From: a virus
DNA length: 64,000 nt
IMG/VR virus record: IMGVR_UViG_3300019927_000058
Coordinates: 1-64,000 of that record
Direction: 5' to 3' (one strand)
Numbering within the stretch: position 1 is the stretch's first letter; each line of letters opens with the position of its first letter. Under the pieces are notes generated by a model. It was given only the letters and a program-made list of their open reading frames with translations, was not told the origin of the DNA and did not search any database. Positions 17,640-64,000 of the stretch are shown here, in pieces. The translations under genes were made by a program, and so were the position numbers.

Positions 17640-17642
17640 GCT

Positions 17643-18281: not shown

Positions 18282-18283
18282 TT

Positions 18284-18679: not shown

Positions 18680-18686
18680 GTATTAT

Positions 18687-21981: not shown

Positions 21982-21982
21982 T

Positions 21983-31076: not shown

Positions 31077-32489
31077 TTAACTTTCTCTCTCATCTTTTTG
31101 TTTCCTATCTTCTTCCGAAGACGCTGGAGGACGGGTAAAGTCAGTTCCCGAAGCACCAACATTATCTTCATTGCTATTGTTTCCATCGGGGACATTATCT
31201 TCTCCATTTCCAGCTTTCTTCTTTGCTTCCTCAACAAGATTTAGATGTTCGGGGTCTTCTCCAATATGGAATCCATCAAATTCATCAACATCATATCCCA
31301 ATTCTTCAACCTTTTGTTCAATAACAGGTTGCCATTCATTCTCAATTTCATTTCGCGCTTCCGAAATTTGATTCTCAAGTCGCTGTTCTTGAGAACGACT
31401 GACAAACTGATTTACATCTGATTCCCAAGCACCAATACTATACTTTGGCATGGGCATTTCCGAAATAATCCAGTTAATATCAAAATCAAGGAATTCTTCA
31501 ATCGGAGCAACTTCACCCGAAACAGTGTCAATTGACATATCTCCTTGGACACCCTGCTTCATTCCGGGTTCAAATTCATCTTGAGAATGTTGATTCATAA
31601 ACTGCTGAATCTCACTTGGTTCCCAAGGCTCTTCTTCAGAACCAAATTGGAATAACTGGAACGGATGAGCAAGCGATTCAATAGCCTTATCGTTATCATC
31701 AAGCTTTTTCAAAAGAGCTTGCAGTCGATCTTCAACAGCGGTAATACGAGATTCGCCAAATATTTGTCCAACATCAGAATCCCTCGTTAACTTAATAACA
31801 CTATCGCGTGTGAATGGGATATAATACCCCTCATTCTCTCCAGTAATAACTTCATCTAACTGAACATATGCAGCGACTTCGTTATCATCATTTGTATAAA
31901 AACTTCTTTGCGAATTCAAACGAGAAATGAAACTGTTTTCTGTTCGTTCATATTCCTCATAATCGTAATCAGGAGGGAGTAAAACAGTCTGTCCGGGTTT
32001 AGTAAAAGCACGAACAGTTTCAGGACGCATTAACTTGAAACCATAGAGATTATCATCTTCCGTTTCAACCTTTTCAGCTAATGCAGTCCCCTTAACTTCT
32101 CGTTGAATAGTGGCTTTTTTCAAAAGCATTGAGAAGTCTTTGTCGATTTCGCCATCGACAATAGCACAGTTGGAAAGCCAACTCTCAATATCCTCTTTCA
32201 ACTCTTCATTATCGGAATCAATGTAATATCCCGGTGCAATGACTTCTGAAGCAAAAGAGCGAATTGGCTGTCGAATAAGTGGAATTTCCTGATATAATTG
32301 CCAATAATCCTGCAATTTTTGTCTATCGGGATAATGCTTATCTCTTCCATTCTCGCTGACAATCTGACTATGCCGGGTTGAAAGACTCGGGAATCTATCA
32401 ATAGAACGGGAATCAGGACTGCCTGTTGCTCGCTGTAATTCCTCTACTACTATATTCCCCGCCCGTGATAATGATTCCCTAATTCCCAT
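31077..32489 (-). CDS. Portal protein
   Basis: 470 aa, immediately downstream of the large terminase and upstream of the protease. Size and position fit a portal, but no specific motif was verified. Confidence 0.6.
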   Translation of the reverse strand: MGIRESLSRAGNIVVEELQRATGSPDSRSIDRFPSLSTRHSQIVSENGRDKHYPDRQKLQDYWQLYQEIPLIRQPIRSFASEVIAPGYYIDSDNEELKEDIESWLSNCAIVDGEIDKDFSMLLKKATIQREVKGTALAEKVETEDDNLYGFKLMRPETVRAFTKPGQTVLLPPDYDYEEYERTENSFISRLNSQRSFYTNDDNEVAAYVQLDEVITGENEGYYIPFTRDSVIKLTRDSDVGQIFGESRITAVEDRLQALLKKLDDNDKAIESLAHPFQLFQFGSEEEPWEPSEIQQFMNQHSQDEFEPGMKQGVQGDMSIDTVSGEVAPIEEFLDFDINWIISEMPMPKYSIGAWESDVNQFVSRSQEQRLENQISEARNEIENEWQPVIEQKVEELGYDVDEFDGFHIGEDPEHLNLVEEAKKKAGNGEDNVPDGNNSNEDNVGASGTDFTRPPASSEEDRKQKDERES

Positions 32490-32492
32490 AAT

Positions 32493-33881
32493 TTAGAAAG
32501 TGAAAGCTCTTTTATTTTTATTATTGTTGCTGTCGTTTGTACTCCGGCCAAACGTATACATCTGCGTTTGACGTTCAACAAAGGACTCTCCACTCATAGC
32601 TGCAACTGCTAAGACATACGAATCTGCAAAGTCATCATGCTCTCCACTTGGAGCATGAATCTTCTTATTTCCTCGTTCAGTCATTTCATACTCAATCGAG
32701 CGGAGTTGACTTTTGAGAGATTCATGGTCTGGAATACTGATTTTATCTTTCTGCATTTTATTCTTAGCAGTTTGATAAATAGATTCCTTACTGCGAAGAG
32801 TAGTTCGGAATCCTTCAACCGGGGAAAATTCTTGTTCAAATCTATCAACTGTGCCTTCCCCGATTCCATTTTCTTCCATGTATCCAAAGAGATAATTCCT
32901 ATCATCTCTTTTAACAAGATTCCTGATTTCGCCTTCTAATTCAGGAACAGTGTTCTCTTCCAAAGACTTTATATCGAAAACATTGCCTTCTGTGTCAATT
33001 GTAGTGATGACAGCACTATCATCTCCCCCAGTAGCAGGATCTACTCCCATATAACAATCTCTCCCCTGCCTGTCGGGATACAAGACATTTTCATCATCAG
33101 GCAACTCAGCCGCCCATTCAAGGCAACGATTAATGTCTTTATTGCTGAAGAATGCGTTCTTTTTCTCGCTAAAGAGTCCAAGAACTTCGCGTTCAAACTC
33201 AATACTTGTCATGTCACGACGCCATTCTTCAACCTGCCGTGAAGAAATTTCAGGATTCTCCATTGAGGCAACGCGCTGAGAATACCAATAATCATCTTCT
33301 TCAAACTTCTTATAAAGATAACCCTCTTTTCCCCAAGGAGTTGACCCCAAAACAAACTGGCCATTCGTAGTCGCAAGCATCGGACTAATAACACTCGTGA
33401 ATACTCCGCGTTCAATGAATGCCGCTTCATCTACAAATGCGGAGTCAATAGTCAAACCACGAATAGTTTCTTCTAACGCGGGAACCGCTTGTATCCAACT
33501 TCCATTGGTTCCCTCCATACGCATTTTTTGGACAGTCTTCAAACCATATTCATCTTCATTGCGAAGCCAATGTTTAATTTCTCCCTTGACTTTACGCATG
33601 AAGTTTTTCGCCTGTCGCTTTGTTGGTGCAACAAGGAGAATACGGCGGTTGGGATACATTGTAAATTCATGTAGAGCCAACCAAGCCATCATAGTCGTCT
33701 TGCCACACTGACGACCTGCTACGATGACTTTTCTATCATCTTCCGAATCCAAGAACTTTTTCTGATATTCATATGGGGAAACATCGGCTTTTGATGAAGG
33801 ATCATCGAGGACTTTATCAACGAATAGCGAAGGCTTCTCTCGAAGCTTCTGCACCATCTTCTTCGATAATCCTTGTTTCAT
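32493..33881 (-). CDS. terL: Terminase large subunit
   Basis: 462 aa. Walker A is VIVAGRQCGKTTMMA, Walker B is LTIDSAFVDEAAF, and the C-terminal nuclease region is YMGVDPATGGDDSAVI. Confidence 0.85.
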   Translation of the reverse strand: MKQGLSKKMVQKLREKPSLFVDKVLDDPSSKADVSPYEYQKKFLDSEDDRKVIVAGRQCGKTTMMAWLALHEFTMYPNRRILLVAPTKRQAKNFMRKVKGEIKHWLRNEDEYGLKTVQKMRMEGTNGSWIQAVPALEETIRGLTIDSAFVDEAAFIERGVFTSVISPMLATTNGQFVLGSTPWGKEGYLYKKFEEDDYWYSQRVASMENPEISSRQVEEWRRDMTSIEFEREVLGLFSEKKNAFFSNKDINRCLEWAAELPDDENVLYPDRQGRDCYMGVDPATGGDDSAVITTIDTEGNVFDIKSLEENTVPELEGEIRNLVKRDDRNYLFGYMEENGIGEGTVDRFEQEFSPVEGFRTTLRSKESIYQTAKNKMQKDKISIPDHESLKSQLRSIEYEMTERGNKKIHAPSGEHDDFADSYVLAVAAMSGESFVERQTQMYTFGRSTNDSNNNKNKRAFTF

Positions 33882-35379: not shown

Positions 35380-36624
35380 TTAGTAATTACTACAACTTCC
35401 AAGTCGGATTTGTTCAAAAGATTCAATTGGATTATCTTCTGTTGCATACCAAAAAGCAGCAGTTTCTCCGCCATCAGAACCAGATTGTTCAGCGAAAGTA
35501 GAAGGCGGAGCAGTGCTTCCTGTCATAATAATTGGGACTTCATCTGCAATCGTCTCCCACTTGATAGAATGATAATGCGAACGAAGTCCCACATCAAAAC
35601 CATTCTCTCTCGTATACCAATCCAAAGCACGCCGAATTCCGCTAGAAGTTCCAATATGCTTGAGATAATTTTCACCATGCCGAGTGAAATATTCCCAACC
35701 ACGAATGTCAAAACTCAAATAACCACCAGAATGAGCTTTTTCAAATCTAATATTATCTGCATCGGAATAACTTAATGCTGTTTCAACGAAATCATATAGC
35801 ATCATATCAGCATTCGTTGTGCTTTCTCGATCAATATTACCGTGATTGCCGGGGACAGCATAAACTTCAACGGATTCAAACTCACAGGAAAGCATTAAAA
35901 TCTGTTCAATGTAAGTATTTCCTGCTTTCCGAAGTTGATCACGAAGATTATCTTCTTGTTCATGCCGCTGTCCCGGAAACACCCCTTCGCCGTCTAGGTG
36001 GTCGCCGTTAAGGATTAACACAACATCTTCAACATCTTCACGTTGATTAGCATCATTTACTGCTCGTTCAAAATATTCTGTTATAGCTTCTCTTGCCTCT
36101 TCAGCAGAATAATATTCAACAGTCGGACGTTCTTTAATCACAGCACCAACATGAGAGTCACTGTGTGGTAAAACTAAAGTAGATTTGCCTTCAGTACGTT
36201 CAGTGACATTCAAAACAGGTTGGCTATTTGAAAGTGCTTCTTTAACTTCCTTTTCGAGTTTAGTTAATGCATTATGAACATCTTTTGTATTCTGAGCCTT
36301 ATCGTAAATATCCTCTCGGAATGGTTCAAGCTCTTCCTCCGCTCTTCCATTAGAAGGTTGATCAGTTTTAGTATATGCATCCTGTGAGTTTTCTTTGTGT
36401 CCCGAGGGTAATTCCTCATCCTCTTCCAAAGAACCATCAGAAACACACCATACGCCATCAGAATCTCGCTCAAACTCAACAGGAGTGTCTTCTTCAATTG
36501 CATCCATCCTATATCGCACAGAACGTCGTGAAATATCAAGATGGTCAGCAATATTTTTTCGGGTTTCTGGAAGACAATCATAAACCGCCTGTTGTTTTGA
36601 CGTAATATTAGGAGAATCGGTCAT
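35380..36624 (-). CDS. HTH domain fused to a calcineurin-like metallophosphoesterase
   Basis: 414 aa. The N-terminal wHTH-like region is QQAVYDCLPETRKNIADHLDISRRSVRYRMDAIEE. The C-terminal phosphoesterase motifs are LVLPHSDSHVG (DxH), LILNGDHLDGEG (GDxxDG), VPGNHGN (GNH) and LRSHYH. Confidence 0.6.
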   Translation of the reverse strand: MTDSPNITSKQQAVYDCLPETRKNIADHLDISRRSVRYRMDAIEEDTPVEFERDSDGVWCVSDGSLEEDEELPSGHKENSQDAYTKTDQPSNGRAEEELEPFREDIYDKAQNTKDVHNALTKLEKEVKEALSNSQPVLNVTERTEGKSTLVLPHSDSHVGAVIKERPTVEYYSAEEAREAITEYFERAVNDANQREDVEDVVLILNGDHLDGEGVFPGQRHEQEDNLRDQLRKAGNTYIEQILMLSCEFESVEVYAVPGNHGNIDRESTTNADMMLYDFVETALSYSDADNIRFEKAHSGGYLSFDIRGWEYFTRHGENYLKHIGTSSGIRRALDWYTRENGFDVGLRSHYHSIKWETIADEVPIIMTGSTAPPSTFAEQSGSDGGETAAFWYATEDNPIESFEQIRLGSCSNY

Positions 36625-36800
36625 ATGTTACCTCAGTTGCCTTAGCATTAGGCAATATCACTTAAGTATCTTTCGTTTCCCGTTAATAAGCAAATAAAAC
36701 TTTCCTACATAGTTTTTGTTACTAAATATGATTTATATTTCCTTTCTAATTAGTAAAGTTTATATCCGTAGCTGTCGTAGGCGGTGCTGTGCGGTATTAG

Positions 36801-36901
36801 TTGTAGTTGAGTATATTATAGTATACTAGTATAGTTGAGTATATTCAACCATACTCCTGTACTTGATTATACTCTCTTATTAGTATAGTTGATTATAAGA
36901 G
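36801..36901. repeat. Direct and inverted repeats in the divergent intergenic control region
   Basis: TAGTTGAGTATATT occurs at 36804-36817 and 36832-36845. TAGTATAGTTGA occurs at 36827-36838 and 36881-36892. The palindrome AGTATACT lies near 36820. The inverted repeat CTCTTAT (36874-36880) / ATAAGAG (36895-36901) flanks the last direct repeat. ATACT recurs five times between ~36820 and 36935. Confidence 0.7.
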
Positions 36902-36904
36902 ATT

Positions 36905-36919
36905 CATAACTCTTTTATA
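36905..36919 (+). promoter_or_regulatory. Promoter motif variant CATAACTCTTTTATA upstream of radA
   Basis: It shares the TAACTCTTTTAT core with the motifs at 37901 and 43631. The ATG lies 38 nt downstream and has a GAGGAA SD-like element. Confidence 0.35.
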
Positions 36920-36956
36920 CTGGAATAACTATACTATTTAATAGATTAGAGGAAAT

Positions 36957-37900: not shown

Positions 37901-37917
37901 AACGTAACCCTTTTATT
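37901..37917 (+). promoter_or_regulatory. Conserved promoter motif AACGTAACCCTTTTATT
   Basis: It differs by 1 nt from 43631-43647. The TATA-like TTTTATT ends 29 nt before the ATG at 37946, a spacing that fits a leaderless transcript. Confidence 0.5.
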
Positions 37918-43218: not shown

Positions 43219-43235
43219 ACGAAACTCTTTTTATT
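43218..43235 (+). promoter_or_regulatory. Conserved promoter motif variant AACGAAACTCTTTTTATT upstream of the leader and tRNA cluster
   Basis: It belongs to the same family as 37901 and 43631. The predicted transcription start is near 43258-43262. Confidence 0.45.
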
Positions 43236-43388: not shown

Positions 43389-43472
43389 GCGGGGGTAGCC
43401 AAGCTAGGAAACAGCGATGCACTTAAGATGCATTCCCTTAGGGGTCCATGCGTTCAAATCGCATCCCCCGCA
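43389..43472 (+). tRNA. tRNA-Leu (anticodon UAA)
   Basis: Manual cloverleaf. Acceptor GCGGGGG/CCCCCGC. Anticodon arm ATGCA-CTTAAGA-TGCAT. Long variable arm CCC-TTA-GGG (class II). T arm ATGCG-TTCAAAT-CGCAT. Discriminator A. The D stem is weak (one C.A mismatch). Confidence 0.85.
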
Positions 43473-43476
43473 CTTT

Positions 43477-43551
43477 GGACACGTAGTTTAGTCTGGATAA
43501 AACCTCTGGCTTCTAACCAGAAGATCAAGTGTTCAAATCACTTCGTGTCCG
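43477..43551 (+). tRNA. tRNA-Arg (anticodon UCU)
   Basis: Manual cloverleaf. Acceptor GGACACG/CGTGTCC. D stem GTTT/AAAC. Anticodon arm TCTGG-CTTCTAA-CCAGA. 5-nt variable loop. T arm AAGTG-TTCAAAT-CACTT. Confidence 0.9.
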
Positions 43552-43554
43552 TTC

Positions 43555-43629
43555 GGGTCCGTAGCTAAGTCTGGTAAAGCGACCTGCTCATAACGGGTTG
43601 ATTCCGGCGTTCAAATCGCCGTGGACCCA
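43555..43629 (+). tRNA. tRNA-Met (or Ile2) with anticodon CAU
   Basis: Manual cloverleaf. Acceptor GGGTCCG/TGGACCC (one G.U pair). Anticodon arm ACCTG-CTCATAA-CGGGT. T arm CGGCG-TTCAAAT-CGCCG. The variable loop is 6 nt, slightly atypical. Confidence 0.8.
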
Positions 43630-43630
43630 T

Positions 43631-43647
43631 AACGTAACTCTTTTATT
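43631..43647 (+). promoter_or_regulatory. Conserved promoter motif AACGTAACTCTTTTATT
   Basis: It ends 24 nt before the ATG at 43671 (RFC small subunit). Confidence 0.5.
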
Positions 43648-47142: not shown

Positions 47143-47397
47143 ATGAGTGATGCACCAAAGGACAATTGGCGTCCAGCAGAGAAGAAACCTATCCAAGTTG
47201 AATTCCGTGGACCTTATTACACACCCGATGAAGTTGAAACTATCGAAGGTGATTTTGAAGTAGATAGAGAATATCTTAATGAACACGGCGGTTATGTCAT
47301 AATCAAGGGAATCGAAGGTGAAAAGTATCCGTGTGCTTTGGATATATTCAGAGAGTCATATGGAATGCCGGAGGAATCAAAATGCTTGGAAGAGTGA
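47143..47397 (+). CDS. Small conserved phage-type beta protein (PGDYG-like?)
   Basis: 84 aa. The pattern KKPIQVEFRGPY..VETIEGDFEV..GGYVIIKGIEGEKYPCALDIFRESY matches my memory of the PGDYG family. Confidence 0.35.
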   Translation: MSDAPKDNWRPAEKKPIQVEFRGPYYTPDEVETIEGDFEVDREYLNEHGGYVIIKGIEGEKYPCALDIFRESYGMPEESKCLEE

Positions 47398-49466
47398 CAT
47401 GGTGTGACTACTGTATCGATGATTATTTCGGTGTACTTGTTCGGTTATCAGCAAGGTTAGAAGATGGCAGTCGTTGGAATGGTTATGTTGCAGGGACAGA
47501 ACCCTACATCTTTGCACCTGAAGATGAACCAGTTCCAGATAAATACTACATCGAGAGAACAGAGTCCGGTTATGAATCTCTCTTCGATCATAAGCTTCAG
47601 AAGATAGTCACACGCACGCCTAAACAGGCTGGTGGACTCACCGACGAGTTTTCTTGGTCCGGTGAAGGTGATGTTCCATATTATCGAAGAGTAGCTATTC
47701 ACGATGGTCTGAGTGGCTATGTAGATATTCCTGAAGAGTATAATGAAAAACGCAAGGATCTACCAGTAGTTCATATTGATGATATTGATGTAGAACCAGA
47801 TTATAACGATACTATTGAGCCACGAATCTCCATTGCTGACATTGAGGTTCATGTTCCTGAAAATGGCACATTTGAGGAAATGCAGAAGAAAGCAAATGAA
47901 CCAATCAATGTTATCTGTTCATATGATACATATGAAGAGAAGTACACTGTCTTCTATTATGATAAGTACGGTGGATTGGATTCGGGGAGTATTCGTGATA
48001 AAATAGAGGAACAGCTTGCGGGTGCAGGAAAACAATGGCAGAATATGAGGAAACATATTGAGAAGGATATTGAATTAGTGATTTCTGATTCCGAGGCTGC
48101 TATGTTGAATGAGTATGAGCAGTATATTAGTGAAAGAGACTTTGATCTTGTTTCAGGTTGGAATTATGTAGATTTCGACCGAGAATATATTCGTAAACGG
48201 ATGAAAGTTCTTTATGAAGATGATGAAAATATCCATCCGTCATGGCTATCTCCTTTCGATGTGATTTCAGATTCTCGGAATGAAAATAGAAGAATTCCGG
48301 GTAGAGCGCCATTTGATATGCTGGAAGGGTTTTGCGATAAATTGACTTTCAGCAATTGGCGTTCTCGATCATTAGAATATGTAGCCAATGAAGAGCTTGG
48401 CATCGGGAAGATAGAGGATGTTCAAATTAATGATGATTGGGAGAATAATGCTTCCCGATTGATTGCGTATAATATCGTTGACGTTATTCTCACTGTGGCG
48501 CTTGATGATGAAAACGATATTCATAACTTTTTCTATGAAATGGCTGACGTTGCCTCTATTCCGATTTATGATGTTTTCTATGAGAAGAGAATCGTTGATG
48601 GAATTGTTCTCAGTTGGCGGAATGAAGATGAAATTCTTCCAACAGCAGATGAAAGTGAACTGGTAGATAATGCAGGCGGTTATGTAGCTAATGCAATTCA
48701 GGGGAGGAAACAAGATGTGGGTGTTTCTGATCTTAAAAGTCTCTATCCTTCTGTAATAATTACGTGGAATCTTTCCACTGAAACAGTTGCGGAAACTCCA
48801 GAAGACTTCGATGAGTATGTAAAAATTCCTAAAGTTCCTGAGCCAAAGAATGTGGATGGAAAAATTCATGAACATTTTATGGATTGGGACTGGTTGTATG
48901 CTTCCCTTGATCAAGAAGGTCTTATCCCAAGAGTCAGTAAGAAACTGTTCAAAAAACGGAATTATGAGAAAGAGCAGATGTATGCTGCTCCAGATGGCTC
49001 TCAAGAACAGAAAAAGTGGGATAGGAAGCAAGGAGCTACAAAGGTTATCATGAATTCGATCTACGGCAACCTCTCTTCCAAATATTTTCGTCTTTCTAAT
49101 GAGTACCTTGGCGATGCTGTTACTTCAACTGCAAGATATACACTTTGGAAAGGAGAGCAAACTATCGACCGTCTTGGATATGAACACATCTACTCAGACA
49201 CAGACAGTCACTTTATTCAATTAACAAGAGACACTTTGGAAGGGCAGGTTGAAGAGTTGAAAGAAATCTCTGCCAAAATGGATTCGGATGCTTCGGAAAT
49301 CGCTCAAGAAATTGGAATTGAGGGTAAGCATCCCTATCTTGTTGATGAAGATTTGCATGGTGATGAATATACTTGCTTATTATGGGAACCAGAAGCCATT
49401 TTCAATTCTTTTCTTCAATTGGGTAAAAAGAAAAGATACGCTGGAAACTTGGGGTGGGAATTATGA
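47382..49466 (+). CDS. polB: Family B DNA polymerase, N-terminal fragment (exonuclease, palm and fingers through the KKRY motif)
   Basis: ATG at 47382 with GGAGGA upstream. Motifs: Exo I ISIADIEV, Exo II SGWNYVDFDREY, Exo III YNIVDVILT, motif A VSDLKSLYPSVI, motif B KVIMNSIYGNLS, motif C IYSDTDSHF, then LGKKKRYAGNLGWEL followed by a stop. Confidence 0.9.
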   Translation: MLGRVTWCDYCIDDYFGVLVRLSARLEDGSRWNGYVAGTEPYIFAPEDEPVPDKYYIERTESGYESLFDHKLQKIVTRTPKQAGGLTDEFSWSGEGDVPYYRRVAIHDGLSGYVDIPEEYNEKRKDLPVVHIDDIDVEPDYNDTIEPRISIADIEVHVPENGTFEEMQKKANEPINVICSYDTYEEKYTVFYYDKYGGLDSGSIRDKIEEQLAGAGKQWQNMRKHIEKDIELVISDSEAAMLNEYEQYISERDFDLVSGWNYVDFDREYIRKRMKVLYEDDENIHPSWLSPFDVISDSRNENRRIPGRAPFDMLEGFCDKLTFSNWRSRSLEYVANEELGIGKIEDVQINDDWENNASRLIAYNIVDVILTVALDDENDIHNFFYEMADVASIPIYDVFYEKRIVDGIVLSWRNEDEILPTADESELVDNAGGYVANAIQGRKQDVGVSDLKSLYPSVIITWNLSTETVAETPEDFDEYVKIPKVPEPKNVDGKIHEHFMDWDWLYASLDQEGLIPRVSKKLFKKRNYEKEQMYAAPDGSQEQKKWDRKQGATKVIMNSIYGNLSSKYFRLSNEYLGDAVTSTARYTLWKGEQTIDRLGYEHIYSDTDSHFIQLTRDTLEGQVEELKEISAKMDSDASEIAQEIGIEGKHPYLVDEDLHGDEYTCLLWEPEAIFNSFLQLGKKKRYAGNLGWEL

Positions 49467-50416
49467 AATACTATTGTGAAAATTGTGATTATTCAACAGA
49501 TACAGAAAGAGGTTTAAATATTCATGTTGGCAGAAAACATGGCAAACCAGTAGAAAAATGCGAAGAATGCAAAGAACAATTTGAAACATCCCCATCAAAC
49601 AATAGAAAGTTTTGCTCCGATGAATGCTACCGTACTTATCAAGAAAGAACAAAAGAAAATAAAGAAGCAAAATGCGAAGTTTGCGGTAAATATTTTGAAT
49701 ATCATCCATCTGCATATGTTGGACGTTTTTGCTCAAAAAAGTGTCAATATAAAGGCAATTCTGCTCCATCTGGACAAGAACACTGGAATTATAAAAAAGA
49801 GATAACAAAACAGTGTAAGAATTGCGATGGGGAGTTTAATGTCAAGCCTCATAAGTCTCATCAAGAATTCTGTAGCTCAGAGTGTGTCGGTAGGTATGGT
49901 GAGTGGGAGAAACCGGGGAGAAGTAAGGTTGACAGAATCAAGAAAGACTGCCATGTATGCGGAGAAGAAGTTATTCGTTTACCTTCAAATATTACTTCTG
50001 ATGAGGAACGTGTGTTTTGTTCTGAACGGTGTCGTGGTAAGTGGGTTTCAAAAAGTGATATATTCAACGCATCATCTGTTTATGTAAAGGAAACAAATAG
50101 AACTGTAGCATCTGGTTGGGAGGCGAAAGTAGACCGAATTCTACATGAAAGTATTTTTGAATACGAATATGAATCAAAAACATTCACCATTGGCGATGAA
50201 AGAAATTATACACCGGATTTCATAGTTGAAGATGATATTGTCATAGAAGTCAAAGGACAAGCATCTGATTATTCATATGAACGTTCTTCTCTATTTTTAC
50301 AAGAGTATGGTGAAGATTGGTTATATATCGTTGTTGGTACTGAAATGGATAGTCACATTCATATATCTTGGAGTAATCATTCAAAGTTACCGGAGGTGTT
50401 GAAGAATGCCATATAA
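49463..50416 (+). mobile_element. Homing-endonuclease-like gene inserted in polB: one C2H2 finger, four CxxC..FCSxxC (FCS/TRASH-like) zinc fingers and a PD-(D/E)XK nuclease
   Basis: ATG at 49463 overlaps the polB-N stop (ATGA). The 3' end overlaps the polB-C start by 11 nt. Motifs: YYCENCDYSTDTERGLNIHVGRKH; CEECKE..FCSDECYRTY; CEVCGK..FCSKKCQYKG; CKNCDG..FCSSECVGRYG; CHVCGE..FCSERCRGKW; C-terminal YTPDFIVEDDIVIEVKG. It is a paralogue of 11392-12519. Confidence 0.7.
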
Positions 50417-56644: not shown

Positions 56645-56659
56645 TCGTAACTGTTTTAA
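56645..56659 (+). promoter_or_regulatory. Promoter motif variant TCGTAACTGTTTTAA
   Basis: It ends 25 nt before the ATG at 56684 (helicase). Confidence 0.45.
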
Positions 56660-56683: not shown

Positions 56684-58324
56684 ATGGAATCAAGAGAAAA
56701 AGAGTTGTTCCCACACCCCTCGTTTCGGGAGAAACAATTTGAAACACTGCAAGCGTGTCTGGATGCGTTTGATAATGGAGCAAAGAATGTCGTTCTCGAT
56801 GCTCCTGTAGGAACAGGCAAATCGGGACTCTGTACTGCACTTCTTCGCTATGCTGATAATGGTTACTACACGACACCACAGAAGTCACTCCGCCAACAAA
56901 TTCAGGATGATGATGCATTGGAACCACACGTTGAAGATTTGAAGGCGAGGAAAGATTATTTCTGCAATGCAGGAAACGATAACTGCAAAGACTGTTCCGT
57001 ATATCAGTCGCAAGACCGTTCCTGTGCAGAGCAAAATGCTCCCCCATGCAATTACTGGAGACGTAAACAAACTGTAATGAATTCTGATATTTCAGTTATT
57101 ACGTTTGCTATGATGATTATTGATGGGATGATTCCGACTGAAGTGAATGGAATGCAGGTATCCTTCGATGATCGAGATATGGTTGTCGTTGATGAAGCTC
57201 ATGGTTTGGTTGAGCAAACCCGTGAAATGCACGCGGGGTTTGACGTTACTCCTTACGGTATTCCCGGTCACGTTTTCCAGAACGTTACGAAATCTGTTTC
57301 TTGGGAAGCGAACCGATATAAAGATGTTGAGAGCGAACTAAATACACTTCTACGCCGACTTAATGATTTCGTTCGTGATGTTCCGCAAATGGAAATGAGC
57401 GATGCTGAAGAGCGTTGTAGCCGTCTTAAAAATAAAATCAAGCAGGCGAAAGAAGACGTAGAAAATGACCGACCTTGGGTTGTTGATGTTGAAGGTAAGA
57501 ATTACGGTGGAGAGTATGTCAAGACACTTGAAATGAGGCCAATATACGTCGGCAACTTCCTCAAAAATTTCGTTTGGGAAAGAGCCAATAAGAGAGTCAT
57601 TTCAACTGCTACTCTCCGACACCGGAATAATCCTGATATTTGGCTAAAGCAGGTTGGTCTTGATCCCGATGAAACGAAAGTAATCAGTGTTGGGATGACC
57701 TTTCCTCCAGAGAATAGACCAGTTATTAAAGACCGCATGGTTGATTCATTTAGTGATGGTGGCTGTGCAGATAATTGGAATGAGGTAATGCACACACTGA
57801 ATGATATTTCTAAGAAGCATGTTGGAAAGAAAGGAATTTGTCATACAGCAAGTTATAATAGAGCCAAAAAAGTAGAAGAGACTGCTGATGATGAAAAACA
57901 TCCTTATCTTAAAGAGAATGTGTATGTCCATACACGCGATGAAGATGCTGAAGTAGCAGTCGAAAATTGGCAAGATAGTGATCTGGACATGATGCTAAGT
58001 CCGAGTATGATGGAAGGTATTTCTTTGGATGGTGATATGGGAGAATATAATATCTTGATGAAAGTTCCGTATCCGCAAATAGATAGTGCAACAGAATTTC
58101 TTTTGGAAAATCGAAGTTTCGGTTGGAATGAATACTTTGATAGAGCAGCTATTCGTGTTGCTCAAGCGTATGGCCGAACCAATCGAAGTAAGGAAGACAA
58201 GTCTAACTTCTATATTCTCGATGAAGATTATGAGAAGTTGAAGAAAAAAGCAACCTTGCCAGAGTGGATTCTACAGGGGGAAGAATATCCAGAAGTAGCG
58301 ACAAGGAGCGTTTTTGATTACTAA
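56684..58324 (+). CDS. XPD/Rad3/DinG-family Fe-S DNA helicase
   Basis: 546 aa. Motifs: FREKQFETL...VLDAPVGTGKSG (motif I), a Cys cluster (FCNAGNDNCKDCSV...SCAEQNAPPCNYW) between motifs Ia and II, VVVDEAHGL (DEAH), and C-terminal AAIRVAQAYGRTNR (motif VI). Confidence 0.8.
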   Translation: MESREKELFPHPSFREKQFETLQACLDAFDNGAKNVVLDAPVGTGKSGLCTALLRYADNGYYTTPQKSLRQQIQDDDALEPHVEDLKARKDYFCNAGNDNCKDCSVYQSQDRSCAEQNAPPCNYWRRKQTVMNSDISVITFAMMIIDGMIPTEVNGMQVSFDDRDMVVVDEAHGLVEQTREMHAGFDVTPYGIPGHVFQNVTKSVSWEANRYKDVESELNTLLRRLNDFVRDVPQMEMSDAEERCSRLKNKIKQAKEDVENDRPWVVDVEGKNYGGEYVKTLEMRPIYVGNFLKNFVWERANKRVISTATLRHRNNPDIWLKQVGLDPDETKVISVGMTFPPENRPVIKDRMVDSFSDGGCADNWNEVMHTLNDISKKHVGKKGICHTASYNRAKKVEETADDEKHPYLKENVYVHTRDEDAEVAVENWQDSDLDMMLSPSMMEGISLDGDMGEYNILMKVPYPQIDSATEFLLENRSFGWNEYFDRAAIRVAQAYGRTNRSKEDKSNFYILDEDYEKLKKKATLPEWILQGEEYPEVATRSVFDY

Positions 58325-58325
58325 A

Positions 58326-58520
58326 ATGATTGAAACACTAACAGCGATTGGCGTTGCATTGTTATTTGGAATAGGGCTGTCGATGACAGTTTTAGGACTG
58401 ACTTTGTTTTACAAAGTTTATATTAGTTCTCAAAATTATGATTCGCCGCTGGTAATTCTACTGATTGCGTTCTTTTCTCTCTGGTTTGGAACAAGTTGTT
58501 TGTTCTTTGTCATTGCCTAA
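58326..58520 (+). CDS. Small membrane protein (2 TM)
   Basis: ATG at 58326. Helices are LTAIGVALLFGIGLSMTVLGLTLF and LVILLIAFFSLWFGTSCLFFVIA. Confidence 0.5.
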   Translation: MIETLTAIGVALLFGIGLSMTVLGLTLFYKVYISSQNYDSPLVILLIAFFSLWFGTSCLFFVIA

Positions 58521-58523
58521 CAA

Positions 58524-58540
58524 ATACGTAAGTCTTTTAA
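58524..58540 (+). promoter_or_regulatory. Conserved promoter motif ATACGTAAGTCTTTTAA upstream of prkA
   Basis: It ends 29 nt before the ATG at 58569. Confidence 0.5.
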
Positions 58541-58568
58541 CCGTGTGTCTCTAACACACGGATGCATT

Positions 58569-60629
58569 ATGGCAGAGAAAGTCAGCGCACTGACGAATTT
58601 GGATACAATCAACGAGAAGCACCAAGATGAAATTCCAGAAGGTCTTCGTGATTCCCATTCGTTTGAATGGTATCTTGAAGAGCTTTCTGCAAGTCCACGA
58701 ATCGCCCGAAATGCACATCAGCGACTTTCGGATATGTTCCGTCACTACGGAACTGAATACGATGAAGAACGCGGTGTTGTCGAATACAAGCTAGCCAGCG
58801 AAGATCCGCTCAATGATGGAGATAATATCTTCTACGGGCGCGATGTTCACGAATCTATCCACGAATTTGTGAACAAAGTTCATTCTGCTTCCCGTGGTTT
58901 GGGGCCAGAAAAACGAATCAAACTTCTCCTTGGTCCGGTTGGTTCTGGTAAGTCTGATTTCGACCGGCAGGTTCGGACTTACTTTGAAGATTATACACGG
59001 CAAGAAGCAGGTCGAATGTATACCTTCCAGTGGACCAATCTCTGCGAAGTTATTGAAGACCAAGATCCTTCGGATGATACGGTGCGTTCGGCTATGAATC
59101 AAGACCCTGTAGTTCTTCTTCCAGAGAGTCAGAGAGAAGAAATCTTTGAAGCTCTCAATGAAGAAATTGATGCAGATTACTACATCGAAAACAAGCAGTC
59201 CCTTGACCCACGGAGTGAATTTTTCATGGATAAACTGCTTGACTACTACGATGATGATCTTCAGGCAGTCCTGAATAATCACATTGAAGTCGTCCGTTTC
59301 GTTGCAAGTGAGAACCGGCGGGAAGGAGTTGAAACCTTTGAGCCAAAGGACAAGAAGAATCAGGATGAAACCGAACTTACTGGAGATGTTAACTATTCCA
59401 AAATTGCAGTTTACGGTGAATCTGATCCGCGTGCGTTTGACTATTCTGGTGCTTTCTGTAATGCCAACCGTGGAATTTTCAGTGGAGAAGAGCTTCTAAA
59501 ACTCCAGAAAGAATTCCTCTATGACTTCCTCCACGCTACTCAAGAACAGACGATCAAGCCGAAAAATAATCCACGTATTGATATTGACCAAGTAATTGTT
59601 GGTCGAACCAATATGCCGGAGTACCGGGAGAAGACTGGTAACGAAAAGATGGAAGCGTTCAACGACCGAACCAAACGTATCGACTTCCCATACGTTTTGG
59701 AGTATTCAGAAGAGGCTAAGATTTACGAGAAGATGCTGAACAACTCTTCTGTTGGTGAAGTTCATGTTGAACCTCATACGCTTGAGATGGCAGGACTGTT
59801 CGGAGTTATGACCCGACTTGAAGAGCCGGGTGCAGAAAATATCACTCTGCTTCAGAAAGCAAAAGCGTACAACGGTGAAGAGAGTGATGTTGGTGATATT
59901 GACATTGAAAAACTCCGTGAAGAGACTGATGAAGAAGGACTGCACGGTGTCTCTGCTCGATTCATCGGAGATGAAATTGCAGAATCTATTGTCTCTCAAC
60001 TGCATGATGATTCCAATTCGCTTTCGGCGCTAACCGTATTCAACCATCTCGAAAATAACATCGAGAATCACGGTTCGATTGCTGATGAAAACCTGACTGA
60101 ATACAATCGGTATATCGAAGAGACAAAGGAAGAGTTTGAAGAGCGAGCTATTGAAGATGTTCGCCATGCCCTCGCATACAATACTGATGAAATCGAAGAG
60201 CAGGGCGAGAAGTACATGGATCACGTCATGGCTTACATCGATGATGATAAAGTCGAAGACGAAATCACGGGTGATATGGTTGATCCTGATGAACAGTTCA
60301 TGCGTTCTGTTGAAGAACAATTAGAAATCCCCCGTGACCGTAAGAACGACTTCCGGCAAGAAATCTCTAATTGGGTCAGTCGGAAAGCGCGGAAAGGTGA
60401 ATCATTTAGCCCGACCGATAATGACCGACTTCTCCGTGCGCTTGAACGCAAGCTATGGTCGGATAAGAAGCATAATATTAACTTTTCCGCTCTCATTAAA
60501 TCGGATGATGATGACGAAAACCGCGACGATTGGATTTCTGCTCTCAAAGACCGTGGTTATTCGGAAGAAGGAGCAGAAGAAGTTCTTGAATACGCAGGAG
60601 CGAAAGTTGCCAAAGAAGAAATGAATTAA
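58569..60629 (+). CDS. prkA: PrkA-family serine protein kinase / AAA+ protein (copy 1)
   Basis: I chose the ATG at 58569. ~686 aa. The N-terminal region FEWYLEELSASPRIARNAHQRL is PrkA-like. The P-loop is IKLLLGPVGSGKSDF. Length and layout match YeaG/PrkA. Confidence 0.75.
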   Translation: MAEKVSALTNLDTINEKHQDEIPEGLRDSHSFEWYLEELSASPRIARNAHQRLSDMFRHYGTEYDEERGVVEYKLASEDPLNDGDNIFYGRDVHESIHEFVNKVHSASRGLGPEKRIKLLLGPVGSGKSDFDRQVRTYFEDYTRQEAGRMYTFQWTNLCEVIEDQDPSDDTVRSAMNQDPVVLLPESQREEIFEALNEEIDADYYIENKQSLDPRSEFFMDKLLDYYDDDLQAVLNNHIEVVRFVASENRREGVETFEPKDKKNQDETELTGDVNYSKIAVYGESDPRAFDYSGAFCNANRGIFSGEELLKLQKEFLYDFLHATQEQTIKPKNNPRIDIDQVIVGRTNMPEYREKTGNEKMEAFNDRTKRIDFPYVLEYSEEAKIYEKMLNNSSVGEVHVEPHTLEMAGLFGVMTRLEEPGAENITLLQKAKAYNGEESDVGDIDIEKLREETDEEGLHGVSARFIGDEIAESIVSQLHDDSNSLSALTVFNHLENNIENHGSIADENLTEYNRYIEETKEEFEERAIEDVRHALAYNTDEIEEQGEKYMDHVMAYIDDDKVEDEITGDMVDPDEQFMRSVEEQLEIPRDRKNDFRQEISNWVSRKARKGESFSPTDNDRLLRALERKLWSDKKHNINFSALIKSDDDDENRDDWISALKDRGYSEEGAEEVLEYAGAKVAKEEMN

Positions 60630-60637
60630 GATAACCC

Positions 60638-62785
60638 ATGTCAAAAAATTTTATCGAGAAAGCGTCTGAAGAAGCCTCGTTACAGGCAGATGATACCATG
60701 TCATTGAAGTCGTTCCTTGAGTACGCTGAGGAAAATACAACGAGCGTGGTTGATTCAGTCACGTATCTGCTAAGGGCGATTGAACATTTCGGTACTCGTA
60801 CCATCTTTGAAGATGGAGAAGAAAAGGAGAGGTACGTGTTCTTTGATGATCCGTATGAAGATGGGGAACACGCTATTCTTGGAAACACAGAGCAGTTGAA
60901 CGAGCTTGTTGATGAATTACGTCGCCGTGCATCCGAGGAAGGGGAGAATAATAAAATCATTTGGTTCCTTGGACCTACGGCTTCTGGTAAGTCGGAATTG
61001 AAGAGATGTATTATCAACGGACTCCGTGGCTTTGCAGAAAGCGATGAAGGTGCAAAGTATACACTTGAATGGACTTTAGATGAGTCTTCAGCAAGTAGTC
61101 GAATGTCCTATGGTTCTGAAGATAATTCTATCTCTAAAGAATACTATAAAAGCCCTGTTAATATCAATCCACTTCTTCTTCTTCCCGAAGAAACAAGAGA
61201 AGAATACATTGAAGAAATTGGAGAAAATATTGAATTAGACGGTGATATTGATCCCTTTAGTCAAGAAGCTATGGAACTACTTGAAGATAATTACGACTTT
61301 TCAGAAATTGTTTCTGAAGAGTTTGTTCAGGCCAAGCGTCTATATCCCGAAGTTGGCGATGGCATTGGCGTTCTCCATAGCGAAGATTCTGGAAATCCGA
61401 AACAGAAGATTGTTGGTTCTTGGATGAATGGTGCTATGGAGAAGTTCGCTAAACGTGGTCAGAAGAATCCACAGGCGTTTTCATATGATGGAGTGCTATC
61501 ACAGGGCAATAGTCTGGTGAGCATCGTGGAAGACGCTGGACACCATTCAGAAGTTCTTGATAAGATGCTCAATGTGTGTGAAGAAGAGATGGTTAAGCTG
61601 GATAATAAGATTTCGATGGATTTGGATACTGTTATCATGGTATTCTCCAATCCAGACTTGGAAGGTCAACTTGAAGAATATAGTGAAGCTGGTCAACATG
61701 ACCCTCTTCGTGCGTTGCGTCGGAGGTTGGATAAGTATGAATTTAATTATTTAACCACCATTGGAATTGAGGGTATGCTGATTAAACGTATGCTTTCGGA
61801 CGATACTCTCATGTGGGATGATGAAGATAATAGAATGGACTTGGTAGCCGAACCAATGGAACTATATCAGACTGAAATCGCTCCAAGATGTATTGAAGCA
61901 GCATCGATGTATGAGATTATTACTCGTCTTGAAGATAAGAAGACCAGTCTCTCTTCTATCAATGAGGCTCTACTTCTAGAACACGGTGAAGTCGAAAGTG
62001 AAAATGGCAATTTGATTACTACTGACGATAGTGAAATGGATTTAAATTTGGGAGGAAGTGTTGGAATTCCTGTCACATACACTGTTGACAAAATAATTGA
62101 ACTTGTTCAGAATAATGATGTAGTTCTGCCTGAAGATGTTCTCAATCAAATGTCTGATAATCTTGAAGATGAACCTGTCTTCAATAATTCTGAAGTAGAA
62201 CACTTTGCAAAGATGGCATTTGATGTTGAAGATTATATTTACAAAGAACAAAGAGATGATGTTCTTGAGGCAATGATTGGAGATATTGAAGTTACCGAAG
62301 AGAATGTTCGTGAATATATTGATGATATTCTTGCTTGGAATGATGAAGATGAAGATGAATATGACCTTTATGAACTACGGGAGTTTGAAACTCGATATTT
62401 AGGACAGGATATTGATGATTATAATGAGAATGCTGTAGCGAATCCTCCTATTGTGGAATTCCGTCGAAACATCATTAGTCCTATCAACAAGTATATGTGG
62501 GAAAAGAGAGATGAAGATTTCACTGTTGATGAAGTTCCGCTTTCAGAGGCTCCGTCTCTCCGACCATTACTTGAAGAAAATGATTGGGATATGGTAGACC
62601 GAGTATATCCAGATGCCGACTTATCGCTCTGGGAGTCGCCGCCTTCAAACACACAGACAGAAGAGTTAAAAGAAAAGACCGTTAAAAGGATGGTAGAGAT
62701 GCAAGGATACTCTGAAGAATCAGCAGAAGAAGTTAGTAAGAAGGTGATTGAACCTCATGTTAAAGCAGAAGAGGTGATGGGATAA
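60638..62785 (+). CDS. prkA: PrkA-family protein (copy 2, divergent)
   Basis: 715 aa. Motifs are SLKSFLEYAEENTTSVVDSVTYLLRAIEHFG and the P-loop IIWFLGPTASGKSELKR. It lies 8 nt downstream of copy 1. Confidence 0.65.
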   Translation: MSKNFIEKASEEASLQADDTMSLKSFLEYAEENTTSVVDSVTYLLRAIEHFGTRTIFEDGEEKERYVFFDDPYEDGEHAILGNTEQLNELVDELRRRASEEGENNKIIWFLGPTASGKSELKRCIINGLRGFAESDEGAKYTLEWTLDESSASSRMSYGSEDNSISKEYYKSPVNINPLLLLPEETREEYIEEIGENIELDGDIDPFSQEAMELLEDNYDFSEIVSEEFVQAKRLYPEVGDGIGVLHSEDSGNPKQKIVGSWMNGAMEKFAKRGQKNPQAFSYDGVLSQGNSLVSIVEDAGHHSEVLDKMLNVCEEEMVKLDNKISMDLDTVIMVFSNPDLEGQLEEYSEAGQHDPLRALRRRLDKYEFNYLTTIGIEGMLIKRMLSDDTLMWDDEDNRMDLVAEPMELYQTEIAPRCIEAASMYEIITRLEDKKTSLSSINEALLLEHGEVESENGNLITTDDSEMDLNLGGSVGIPVTYTVDKIIELVQNNDVVLPEDVLNQMSDNLEDEPVFNNSEVEHFAKMAFDVEDYIYKEQRDDVLEAMIGDIEVTEENVREYIDDILAWNDEDEDEYDLYELREFETRYLGQDIDDYNENAVANPPIVEFRRNIISPINKYMWEKRDEDFTVDEVPLSEAPSLRPLLEENDWDMVDRVYPDADLSLWESPPSNTQTEELKEKTVKRMVEMQGYSEESAEEVSKKVIEPHVKAEEVMG

Positions 62786-62997
62786 TGTCTCAAAACGGTG
62801 AGTACAATGACGGCACTGGGGGAATCCGTGTTGGCCGTGTTATCATGGATGCGGGACTGCTCGGAGCGGAAGTTGAGGCAGTAGCCCATTCGATAGAGGA
62901 AAATACGCCATTTGAAACCGAACGTCAGACTGGTATGCGGATAGATGTGTTTCGGCCACAAGAATCGGATACTAACCGAAACGGAGGTAAACAATAA
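62785..62997 (+). CDS. Small ORF (70 aa) embedded in the prkA-yeaH module
   Basis: TAATG overlaps on both sides argue for translation. No motif was recognised. Confidence 0.4.
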   Translation: MSQNGEYNDGTGGIRVGRVIMDAGLLGAEVEAVAHSIEENTPFETERQTGMRIDVFRPQESDTNRNGGKQ

Positions 62998-64000
62998 TGG
63001 GACTTAAAGAAGATTTGAAAAGGTTTGAAGAAGTTGGTGAAGAGAGACGCCAAGACCTTTCAGAATATATTCAGCATGGGCAGATTGAAGCGGGAGATGA
63101 TATTAAGGTTCCAATCAAAGTAATCAACCTCCCCGGATTTGAATATGATCCAAGCGATAAAGGTGGTGTTGGAAAGGGACAAGGAGAACAAGGCGACCCT
63201 GTAGATGCTGGTCAGCCAGAACCCGGAGACGATGATGAAGAAGGAGAACCGGGCGAAGAAACTTCAGAACATGGTCATTATGATATGGACCCTGAAGAAT
63301 TCGCTGAAGAATTAGATGAAGAACTTGGTCTGGACCTTGACCCCAAAGGAAAGAAAGTCAAAGAAGAAACGGAAGGCCCATACACTGAACTTGCTCGGTC
63401 TGGTCCTGAGTCTACGCTTGACTTTGAACGGATGTTCAAGAAAGGACTCAAGCGTAGTCTTGCTATGTTCTTTGATGAAGAATACCTCAAAGAAGTGATG
63501 AGAGTTAAAGGCATGGGTCCAGAGAAAGTATTTGAATGGTCCAGAGAGCAGAATATCCCTGTTTCAAAAAGCTGGATTCAAGGCGAATATCCAGACATTG
63601 AAGAGAAAAGTATGTATGACTCTATCGATGATATTCCGGGCGAAATGCGAAGAACGCCTGTAGCAGAAGAAATTGATTCAGTTGCTCTTCGGGAAGAAGA
63701 CAAGCGACACAAGTTCCCTGAAGTTACTACAGAGTATGAGAAGAATGCTGTAGTTGTCTTTATCCGAGATGTTTCTGGTTCCATGAGAAAACAGAAACGC
63801 CGTCTTGTTGAACGTGTATTCACGCCTATTGATTGGTATCTTACCGGGAAGTATGATAATGCTGAGTTTGTTTACATTGCTCACGATTCTGAAGCATGGG
63901 AAACAGAGCAAAGTGAATTCTTCGGAATCAAATCAGGCGGAGGAACGCAAATTTCGAGCGCATACGAACTAGCCCAAGAAATCCTTGAACAAAGGTACAG
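62997..64000 (+). CDS. yeaH: YeaH/YhbH (DUF444, UPF0229) protein with a vWA-like domain; 3' end beyond the window
   Basis: The ORF is absent from the track because it is partial. My translation from the ATG at 62997 (GGAGGT 9 nt upstream) stays open to 64000. Sequence features: MGLKEDLKRFEEVGEERRQDLSEYIQHG..IKVPIKVINLPGFEYD..GGVGKGQGEQGDP.., then VVFIRDVSGSMRKQK...GGGTQISSAYELAQEIL. Confidence 0.7.
   Translation, partial: MGLKEDLKRFEEVGEERRQDLSEYIQHGQIEAGDDIKVPIKVINLPGFEYDPSDKGGVGKGQGEQGDPVDAGQPEPGDDDEEGEPGEETSEHGHYDMDPEEFAEELDEELGLDLDPKGKKVKEETEGPYTELARSGPESTLDFERMFKKGLKRSLAMFFDEEYLKEVMRVKGMGPEKVFEWSREQNIPVSKSWIQGEYPDIEEKSMYDSIDDIPGEMRRTPVAEEIDSVALREEDKRHKFPEVTTEYEKNAVVVFIRDVSGSMRKQKRRLVERVFTPIDWYLTGKYDNAEFVYIAHDSEAWETEQSEFFGIKSGGGTQISSAYELAQEILEQRY

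Follow-up and report, generated by a model that had tools for sequence, protein, structure and literature searches.

What is a complete set of genes for a cellular stress pathway doing at the end of a viral sequence, and does it belong to the virus at all? The question is raised by IMG/VR virus record IMGVR_UViG_3300019927_000058, of which we analysed positions 1 to 64,000 (this whole stretch of 64,000 nucleotides is called the window here). At its right-hand end lie two consecutive genes for PrkA/YeaG-family AAA+ ATPases (PrkA-1 and PrkA-2), an open reading frame (ORF) of 70 codons, and the first part of a gene for a von Willebrand factor A (vWA) protein of the DUF444/YeaH family. A preliminary description, made from the sequence alone, had read these as a virus-borne PrkA-PrkA-YeaH operon. 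We find that the module is a viral derivative of the prkA1-prkA2-yeaH(DUF444)-spoVR cluster of haloarchaeal chromosomes, internal to the virus and not adjacent host DNA. With moderate confidence we propose that the virus captured this operon whole, kept it, and uses a self-sufficient version of it to control a stress programme of its host.

A haloarchaeal gene cluster inside a virus

Both PrkA proteins carry the two Pfam domains of the PrkA/YeaG family, above cut-off and in the usual order. The matches of PrkA-1 are strong (AAA_PrkA, PF08298, 2.8e-65 and 221 bits; PrkA, PF06798, 1.6e-66 and 225 bits) and those of PrkA-2 weaker (1.1e-17 and 64.6 bits; 4.3e-16 and 59.8 bits), the cut-off being 25 bits for either profile. 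The truncated vWA protein matches DUF444 (PF04285, cut-off 27 bits) at 1.3e-70 and 239 bits over profile positions 14-328 of 418; the C-terminal quarter lies beyond the window. PDB entry 9xip, the only solved PrkA structure, is matched by PrkA-1 at 8e-137 and by PrkA-2 at 3.5e-24. The assignments made in the preliminary description passed this check with profile hidden Markov models, all matches being over threshold, and its coordinates for the four reading frames (Table 1, the last one open to the window end) are as it gave them. The peptides that it quoted, LLLGPVGSGKSDF, WFLGPTASGKSELKR, GGVGKGQGEQGDP, VVFIRDVSGSM and GGGTQISSAY, are all present.

The window's own sequence ends inside the DUF444 gene; IMG/VR gave no exact DNA match, and the DUF444 fragment had no match there or in the JGI metagenome collection. 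The remainder of the module was read from relatives, which comprise nine contig stretches from four sources (JGI, ENA, Logan and IMG/VR) representing different samples and assemblers. By the identity of their PrkA-1 to that of the window they are L009 (94%, JGI), L002 (88%, a 96-kb contig from Logan), L003, which equals L010 (88%, JGI, and an IMG/VR viral genome), L007 (80%, JGI, 95 kb), L005 (77%, ENA, 107 kb), L011 (77%, an IMG/VR viral genome), L008 (76%, soda-lake brine) and L006 (75%, Logan). The order helicase, PrkA, PrkA, DUF444, SpoVR and then small virus-like genes is found in all nine. Further upstream the relatives have the same order as the window: family B DNA polymerase (PolB), a replication factor C (RFC)-like ATPase, dCD/dUTPase, Hjc, dTMP kinase and helicase. 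SpoVR stands directly or almost directly after DUF444 in every case (609-619 amino acids by gene calls; 259 bits against Pfam SpoVR, PF04293, in L009), complete DUF444 copies have 424-432 amino acids, and the small virus-like genes that follow the module occupy 4-5 kb or more. Two of the relatives are classed as viral genomes by IMG/VR. Because nine of nine related stretches carry DUF444 and then SpoVR, the latter almost certainly lies just past base 64,000 of the window's contig; the earlier expectation of a SpoVR gene at that place is borne out in every relative, the closest included, while the window's own copy lies beyond its last base. The more distant HF1/HF2-like viruses, with helicases about 37% identical, are without the module.

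The same four genes form an operon in haloarchaeal cells. In Halomicrobium salinisoli (CP084466) they encode PrkA proteins of 690 and 760 amino acids, a DUF444 protein of 438 and a SpoVR protein of 678, and the cluster was present in all ten haloarchaeal genomes compared by Anderson et al. in 2011, and in no other archaea (PMC3102087). The statement, in the preliminary description, that haloarchaea have the operon with a duplicated prkA is confirmed by both. Each viral protein is the orthologue of the cellular protein in the same position, the identities being about 73% for PrkA-1, 40% for PrkA-2 (full length, Halomicrobium), 58% for DUF444 (Halomicrobium) and 54% for SpoVR, whereas PrkA-1 and PrkA-2 of the window are only 22% identical to each other. 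Because orthology follows position and the paralogues are so far apart, the duplication of PrkA is ancient and cellular and the operon was taken as a block, which indicates capture of the whole operon from a haloarchaeal host. The virus has what distinguishes the haloarchaeal cluster, namely two adjacent ancient PrkA paralogues, DUF444 and SpoVR, all orthologous by position, with SpoVR known from the relatives only.

Viral and cellular copies are separated at 100/100 bootstrap in unrooted neighbour-joining trees of all four genes. When the trees are rooted with an outgroup, the viral copies are monophyletic at 51 for PrkA-2, 74 for DUF444 and 88 for SpoVR. Viral copies are more distant from one another than cellular copies are for every gene, which points either to an old capture or to faster evolution in the virus. 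The module is under strong purifying selection: in the closest pair the proportion of synonymous differences (pS) is about 0.65, near saturation, and that of nonsynonymous differences (pN) is 0.03 for PrkA-1, and the ratio of the two substitution rates (dN/dS) is 0.02-0.05 for PrkA-1, 0.06-0.14 for PrkA-2 and about 0.06-0.07 for DUF444. PrkA-1 (75-88%) and DUF444 (64-82%) are the best conserved proteins of the replication arm in the five relatives compared, and PrkA-2 (41-66%) is on a par with PolB (53-71%), the helicase (48-72%) and the RFC-like ATPase (49-70%).

The module is also viral in its setting and its composition. The 64 kb encode a large terminase subunit (TerL, 32493-33881), a portal protein (31077-32489) and a tape measure protein (7113-11210), all found by profile searches and all within a minus-strand structural arm (1.6-36.6 kb); the plus-strand arm (37-64 kb) encodes PolB, the RFC-like AAA ATPase and the helicase. 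With terminase, portal and tail genes on one contig the window qualifies as a tailed archaeal virus, and the helicase borders the module on its left. GC content at third codon positions (GC3) is 0.36 in the module, 0.28-0.31 in the rest of the virus (standard deviation per gene, 0.07) and 0.97 in the Halomicrobium operon; relative synonymous codon usage in the module correlates with that of the virus (r = 0.79) and inversely with that of the host operon (r = -0.40). The AT-rich codon style that had been attributed to the module is thereby upheld. Tetranucleotide distances show no break at its boundary, and viruses with helicases of only 50-72% identity still share the junction of helicase, a 68-codon ORF and PrkA-1. 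A virus/host junction at 58.3-58.6 kb, which would have made the operon host DNA, was not found there: composition is continuous, and the 68-codon ORF and a promoter-like element are conserved. PrkA-1 is carried by at least 551 haloarchaeal genomes among the 185,579 species-representative genomes of GTDB, and in none of the 185,579 does its identity to the viral protein exceed 73%. Because cellular identity never exceeds that value in the species-representative genomes, neither a provirus nor a recent donor is indicated. Virus-like genes also follow the module on its right in the relatives. Its surroundings, its composition and its place in the trees are those of a virus, and none corresponds to a chromosomal location with host composition. 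The earlier view of a resident viral copy therefore stands.

Protein motifs, expression signals and small reading frames

The residues expected of working proteins are in place. Walker A reads GPVGSGKS in PrkA-1 and GPTASGKS in PrkA-2, and the Walker A, acidic pair, sensor-1 Asn and Arg columns are kept in nine of nine viral copies of each paralogue, the motifs having been assigned by the general AAA+ pattern and not from a structure. The Walker A lysine of Bacillus subtilis PrkA, K108, which is essential there for binding of ATP and for function, has a counterpart in both viral PrkA copies, and the motif DVSGS, of the metal ion-dependent adhesion site (MIDAS) type, is kept in all viral copies of DUF444. 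The three PDB entries 9xip, 9xiq and 9xir describe a 692-amino-acid 'Serine protein kinase' in a total of 30 chains, and the oligomeric state in these entries could be relevant to the idea of a mixed ring of PrkA-1 and PrkA-2. An AlphaFold2 model of PrkA-1 was discarded (mean predicted local distance difference test score 43.7, predicted template modelling score 0.32, shallow alignment).

Table 1. Positions in the window of the module genes and of neighbouring features (aa, amino acids; nt, nucleotides)
Feature	Position	Strand	Basis or remark
PrkA-1, PrkA/YeaG-family AAA+ ATPase, 686 aa	58569..60629	+	Pfam, PDB match, orthologue of first haloarchaeal PrkA
PrkA-2, divergent PrkA paralogue, 715 aa	60638..62785	+	Pfam, PDB match, orthologue of second haloarchaeal PrkA
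70-aa ORFan	62785..62997	+	TAATG overlaps; matches no family
DUF444/YeaH-family vWA protein, first 334 codons	62997..64000	+	Pfam DUF444; gene cut by window end
68-aa predicted protein with two transmembrane segments	58314..58520	+	between helicase and module, just upstream of promoter-like element
Promoter-like element (BRE/TATA-like, ...ACGTAAGTCTTTTAA)	58526..58540	+	ends 28 nt before PrkA-1 ATG
Perfect 8+8 inverted repeat CCGTGTGT-CTCTA-ACACACGG	58541..58561	+	between TATA-like box and start codon; read from sequence
Copies of motif CGWAANYCTTTTWA	37903-37916, 43220-43233, 43633-43646, 56646-56659, 58527-58540

A GTG at 58545 would also open the reading frame of PrkA-1; the ATG form adopted here is identical to the 686-amino-acid JGI gene call P0001. 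Upstream of this start is a putative promoter that resembles the TFB recognition element (BRE) and TATA box of archaea, with the TATA-like box at 58534-58540, and L009, L002, L003, L006 and L008 have an equivalent element at the corresponding position before PrkA-1. The preliminary description had the module preceded by a promoter motif in common with other genes of the virus. In its exact form this does not hold, since the 15-mer ACGTAAGTCTTTTAA occurs once in the window, with one further copy at two mismatches. It does hold for the degenerate motif CGWAANYCTTTTWA, a consensus built from the relatives, of which the window has six copies where 1.27 are expected (none of 100 shuffles gave six) and which stands 24-29 nucleotides upstream of four plus-strand ORF starts (37946, 43671, 56684 and 58569), those of the helicase and PrkA-1 included. 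This spacing fits an archaeal BRE/TATA promoter with leaderless or short-leader transcripts, promoter function being assumed by analogy with haloarchaeal promoters. The inverted repeat at 58541-58561 is partially conserved in L009, and short inverted repeats also follow the motif copies at 37903 and 43220; such repeats may be operators or 5' hairpins, perhaps of a common viral regulon.

Eight nucleotides separate PrkA-1 from PrkA-2, and the TAATG stop/start overlaps at 62783-62787 and 62995-62999 that had been described on either side of the 70-codon ORF are present. Within the module no further copy of the motif was found. Because its junctions measure 8 nucleotides or consist of overlapping codons and no motif copy lies inside it, the arrangement suggests that the module is one transcription unit.

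The 70-codon ORF had been described as a member of the operon, and that part of the description was not upheld. Its product has no match in Pfam, PHROGs or PADLOC, has no counterpart in any of the relatives compared, and in a search of 5.8 billion proteins matched only itself. Homology to the 99-amino-acid ORF that relatives have between their PrkA genes was considered and rejected, the two being without similarity. On these comparisons the 70-codon ORF is best described as an ORFan insertion specific to this lineage and outside the conserved operon set. Small ORFs of 44-99 amino acids, mutually unrelated, are found at varying junctions of the module in L002, L003, L005, L006, L008 and L009, either between the PrkA genes or between DUF444 and SpoVR, and the cellular operon is without inserts. 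The 99-amino-acid ORF is the only insert common to several relatives (L009, L003 and L002). The inserts may be functional adaptors or simply tolerated insertions. The ORF of 68 codons upstream of the module differs in being retained, since tblastn found it at the same position in L009 (62%), L002, L007, L003 and L005. Its product, which has no match in Pfam or PADLOC, is a conserved viral neighbour and not a part of the host-derived operon.

Judged by its genes, the window is part of a low-GC haloarchaeal tailed virus of about 106 kb (a JGI contig of 106,233 bp), in the class Caudoviricetes and distantly akin to HGTV-1 and the HCTV/HVTV viruses. By TerL the nearest isolate is HGTV-1 (37%); by PolB the nearest are HCTV-5, HCTV-1 and HVTV-1 (about 39%). 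No deposited phage matches the window at the nucleotide level, and no major capsid protein was identified in it by the profiles applied. Low GC suggests Haloquadratum-like hosts (PMC12418951); no Haloquadratum sequence is among the best 80 cellular copies of PrkA-1. At about 36600-36950, between the structural and the replication arm, coding strand and GC skew both change sign, and divergent promoters or an origin of replication could be located here.

Other features of the virus and its relatives were recorded in passing. Three viral tRNA genes, for Leu(TAA), Arg(TCT) and Met(CAT), are clustered at 43389-43629, with the motif copy at 43220-43233 lying 155 nucleotides upstream of them. The Leu and Arg tRNAs decode AT-rich codons, which are much commoner in the virus than in a high-GC haloarchaeal operon; AGA makes up 30% of Arg codons in the plus arm and 1% in the Halomicrobium operon. 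PolB has 711 amino acids in the window (47331-49466), 870-876 in L003, L006 and L007, and 1281-1304, with intein/LAGLIDADG signatures, in L002 (1-1953) and L005 (1-572). In the five relatives compared, nothing corresponds to the ORF that follows PolB in the window (49454-50416). In L006 an RtcB RNA ligase gene (17564-18958) comes directly after SpoVR and a dual-specificity phosphatase gene further on (21769-22058).

A proposed role and its alternatives

We propose that an ancestor of this virus lineage took prkA1-prkA2-yeaH(DUF444)-spoVR in one piece and that the lineage has since kept the operon among its best-conserved gene sets. A virus-type BRE/TATA promoter, of the kind that also precedes the helicase and other replication-arm genes, would probably drive a single polycistronic message, and the products would be SpoVR, a partner of the vWA/MIDAS type and two AAA+ ATPases whose nucleotide-binding motifs are intact. 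In infection the virus would in this way make its own complete, co-evolved machine, independent of host subunits. That machine could take over a PrkA-dependent starvation, osmotic-stress or quiescence programme, and a nutrient-limited host would then keep producing virus. A self-sufficient complex is suggested above all because every virus lineage that has the module carries all the partner families and never PrkA alone; besides this virus clade, the complete set is found, in its bacterial form, in four phage lineages. In this scheme the identity of the genes, their residence in the virus, a host origin with the same gene order, purifying selection, the intact motifs and the common promoter-like motif are shown; we infer that the proteins form a complex and are co-transcribed, when they are expressed, which pathway they act on and in which direction.

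That these proteins act as a unit and are linked to stress is known from cellular systems. The cofitness of yeaG, yeaH and ycgB exceeds r = 0.7 in six bacteria, which places them in one pathway (10.1101/072470), and YeaG is required by Escherichia coli for adapting to sustained nitrogen starvation (PMC4664914). In Bacillus anthracis both sporulation and tolerance of osmotic stress depend on PrkA, a clade III AAA+ ATPase (PMC13001217). In a winter saltern population, prkA2 was among the 25 most expressed genes of Haloquadratum (PMC9684190).

A number of points weigh against our reading. The biochemistry of PrkA is disputed: the E. coli protein has been described as a kinase; that of B. subtilis as an ATP-dependent protease, which binds and hydrolyses ATP by way of K108, shows slow ATP-dependent proteolysis and lacks kinase activity (PMC9512850); and that of B. 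anthracis as neither, both activities having been negligible in vitro (PMC13001217). The physiological effect of the module on the host, and whether it is activating or blocking, are guesses. The window's sequence ends at 64,000, and its SpoVR and right viral flank are supplied by the relatives. GC3 of the module is about one standard deviation over the viral mean. The trees are neighbour-joining trees and the cellular sample is biased to sequences most similar to the query. In the PrkA-1 tree rooted with phage phiYS40 there is no viral clade (3/100), the root falling inside the viral group; given the unrooted value of 100/100 we regard this as a rooting problem, with the caveat that a single capture is less secure for PrkA-1 than for the other genes.

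Viral subunits might instead act by interference, mixing or competing with the host machine and blocking or redirecting the stress or quiescence response, and fast-evolving PrkA-2 and SpoVR would be especially suited to this. We consider that outcome possible, if unlikely. PrkA-1 has stayed near its host counterpart (about 73%) while PrkA-2 (40%) and SpoVR (54%) are far diverged and 45-60 amino acids shorter, and the virus-specific small ORFs at different junctions could be adaptors or inhibitors. With certain nitrogen sources E. coli gains a growth advantage when yeaG, yeaH or ycgB is lost (10.1101/072470), so that growth can benefit from an inactive pathway. However, no viral copy has lost its ATPase or MIDAS motifs, although a simple poison subunit could do without them, the complete partner set in each virus lineage points to a self-sufficient complex, and the small ORFs are not conserved.

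A more speculative scheme is one that we hold a little more doubtful still. PrkA-YeaH-SpoVR would control a universal checkpoint on entry into quiescence, on which it depends whether a nutrient-limited cell, once infected, is still able to yield virus; its parts would have to co-evolve, so that single subunits could not be borrowed, and the variable small ORFs, the 70-codon ORFan for example, would be virus-specific adaptors that retarget it. This would account for the capture of the complete set by each of at least five unrelated lineages, among them Thermus phages, huge phages and the present haloarchaeal clade, in which the set is under stricter conservation than the replication genes.

Two further explanations appear improbable, to about the same degree. 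The first supposes that cellular PrkA-YeaH-SpoVR is itself a dormancy or abortive-infection barrier and that the viral copy serves counter-defence or superinfection exclusion. At least five unrelated virus lineages, in Bacteria and Archaea, independently took the full set, a recurrence typical of genes at a conflict interface, and the pathway is tied to growth arrest and metabolic heterogeneity (PMC4664914). Nevertheless, PADLOC-DB models gave no match at E <= 0.001 to PrkA-1, PrkA-2, the 70-codon ORF, DUF444, SpoVR or the 68-codon ORF, and we found no experiment that ties PrkA to phage resistance in the literature searched. The cellular operon, moreover, is universal, vertically inherited and part of the conserved core in haloarchaea (PMC3102087), unlike patchy defence islands.

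The second has the module serving a function of the virus's own, for example the remodelling of replication or assembly complexes as an AAA+ unfoldase or protease. It would account for a place in the replication arm directly after the helicase, with a promoter-like motif common to both, and it can appeal to the Lon-like ATP-dependent proteolysis of B. subtilis PrkA in vitro (PMC9512850) and to Thermus phage Lalka8, whose module sits between head genes and TerL. Yet HF1/HF2-like, HCTV, HVTV and HGTV viruses replicate and assemble without the module, its position varies between virus lineages, and the four proteins remain clear host orthologues with no new domains.

That the module might be host chromosomal DNA beside an integrated provirus, or the product of a chimeric virus-host assembly, is very improbable: it stands at the window edge and has a clear cellular ancestry, L005 has a phage integrase gene close behind SpoVR, and Enterobacter phage LAU1 (MN688132.1), with a 'YeaG' gene (232-1908) at the very end of a 30.8-kb record, shows that the artefact occurs, but in nine stretches from different samples and assemblers the module has this gene order and lies between virus-like genes, it has the composition and codon usage of a virus, contrary to the host operon, the upstream junction and the promoter-like element are conserved across diverged viruses, no cellular copy is more than 73% identical and the viral/cellular split is 100/100 in all four genes, so that host DNA and misassembly are effectively excluded. 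The LAU1 gene resembles host flank kept in a prophage-derived record. The integrase gene of L005 (19078-20004) lies 1.4 kb downstream of SpoVR, and that virus may be temperate.

Comparison with known systems

Complete sets of the same pathway have already been recorded, unstudied, in phages, and the module described here is the archaeal variant with two PrkA proteins. In the Thermus phages the order is DUF444-SpoVR-PrkA, as in Lalka8 and, with an unrelated gene before PrkA, in phiYS40; in the others, Ralstonia jumbo phage RsoM2USA (PMC8504454) and the 595-kb huge phage LR756511, it is PrkA-DUF444-SpoVR. The unrelated gene, gp58 of phiYS40 (616 amino acids, between SpoVR and PrkA), was considered as a second PrkA and rejected, having no similarity to PrkA-2 or to the PrkA of phiYS40. 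The sets of phiYS40, TMA, Lalka8, RsoM2USA and LR756511 resemble the module in bringing all the pathway families, verified with Pfam, into tailed viruses, and they too are uncharacterised. They differ from that of the window in being of bacterial type, with one PrkA that is only 27-38% identical to PrkA-1, and they were captured independently, from bacterial hosts. PHROGs already holds families that match these proteins, phrog_22605 and phrog_19072, whose function is not annotated. The preliminary description knew of no characterised viral example; taken literally this is right, and the novelty that it implied was overstated in view of the complete sets in phiYS40, Lalka8, RsoM2USA and LR756511. 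There is no archaeal virus among the 17 records with PrkA in the phage collection and we found no report of PrkA in archaeal viruses in the literature, so that, as far as searched, the module is the first example in an archaeal virus within these collections.

PrkA/YeaG, YeaH and SpoVR/YcgB are among the most widespread conserved gene sets of bacteria and haloarchaea whose biochemistry is unsettled. A whole clade of archaeal viruses keeps the four-gene haloarchaeal set under very strong purifying selection and, taken together with the unrelated phages, this clade argues that the pathway strongly affects viral fitness and makes it look like a recurrent viral target. The cultured Thermus phages that carry the module offer a new route to the study of the pathway, and the viral proteins, being compact and diverged, lend themselves to complementation and interaction work in Haloferax.

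The well-studied cellular systems, yeaG-yeaH/ycgB of E. coli and prkA-yhbH/spoVR of B. subtilis, consist of the same three protein families as the viral module. They differ from it in being cellular and bacterial and in having a single PrkA, and their regulation, by RpoS/NtrC and by sigma-E, has no counterpart in the virus.

Other viruses carry host-derived regulatory or stress genes, such as phoH and mazG of cyanophages and the sporulation regulators of phages. Genes of the phoH and mazG type are like the module in being genes of host physiology that steer the state of the infected cell. Those cases are mostly single genes, whereas here a whole four-gene operon is carried, with PrkA-1 and DUF444 more conserved than the replication genes of the virus itself; it is a striking case of a multi-gene regulatory operon retained as viral cargo.

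The closest known system remains the cluster of the haloarchaeal chromosome. Its four families and their order are those of the module, its junctions are likewise tight or overlapping, its genes are orthologous position by position, and it has the same pair of Walker A variants, GPVGSGKS in the first PrkA copy and GPTA[ST]GKS in the second. The viral form is set apart by its location in a virus genome, by a virus-type promoter-like element, by a GC3 of 0.36 and not 0.97, by virus-specific small ORFs between its genes, by PrkA-2 and SpoVR proteins some 45-60 amino acids shorter than the haloarchaeal cellular forms, and by a 100/100 separation from the cellular copies sampled.

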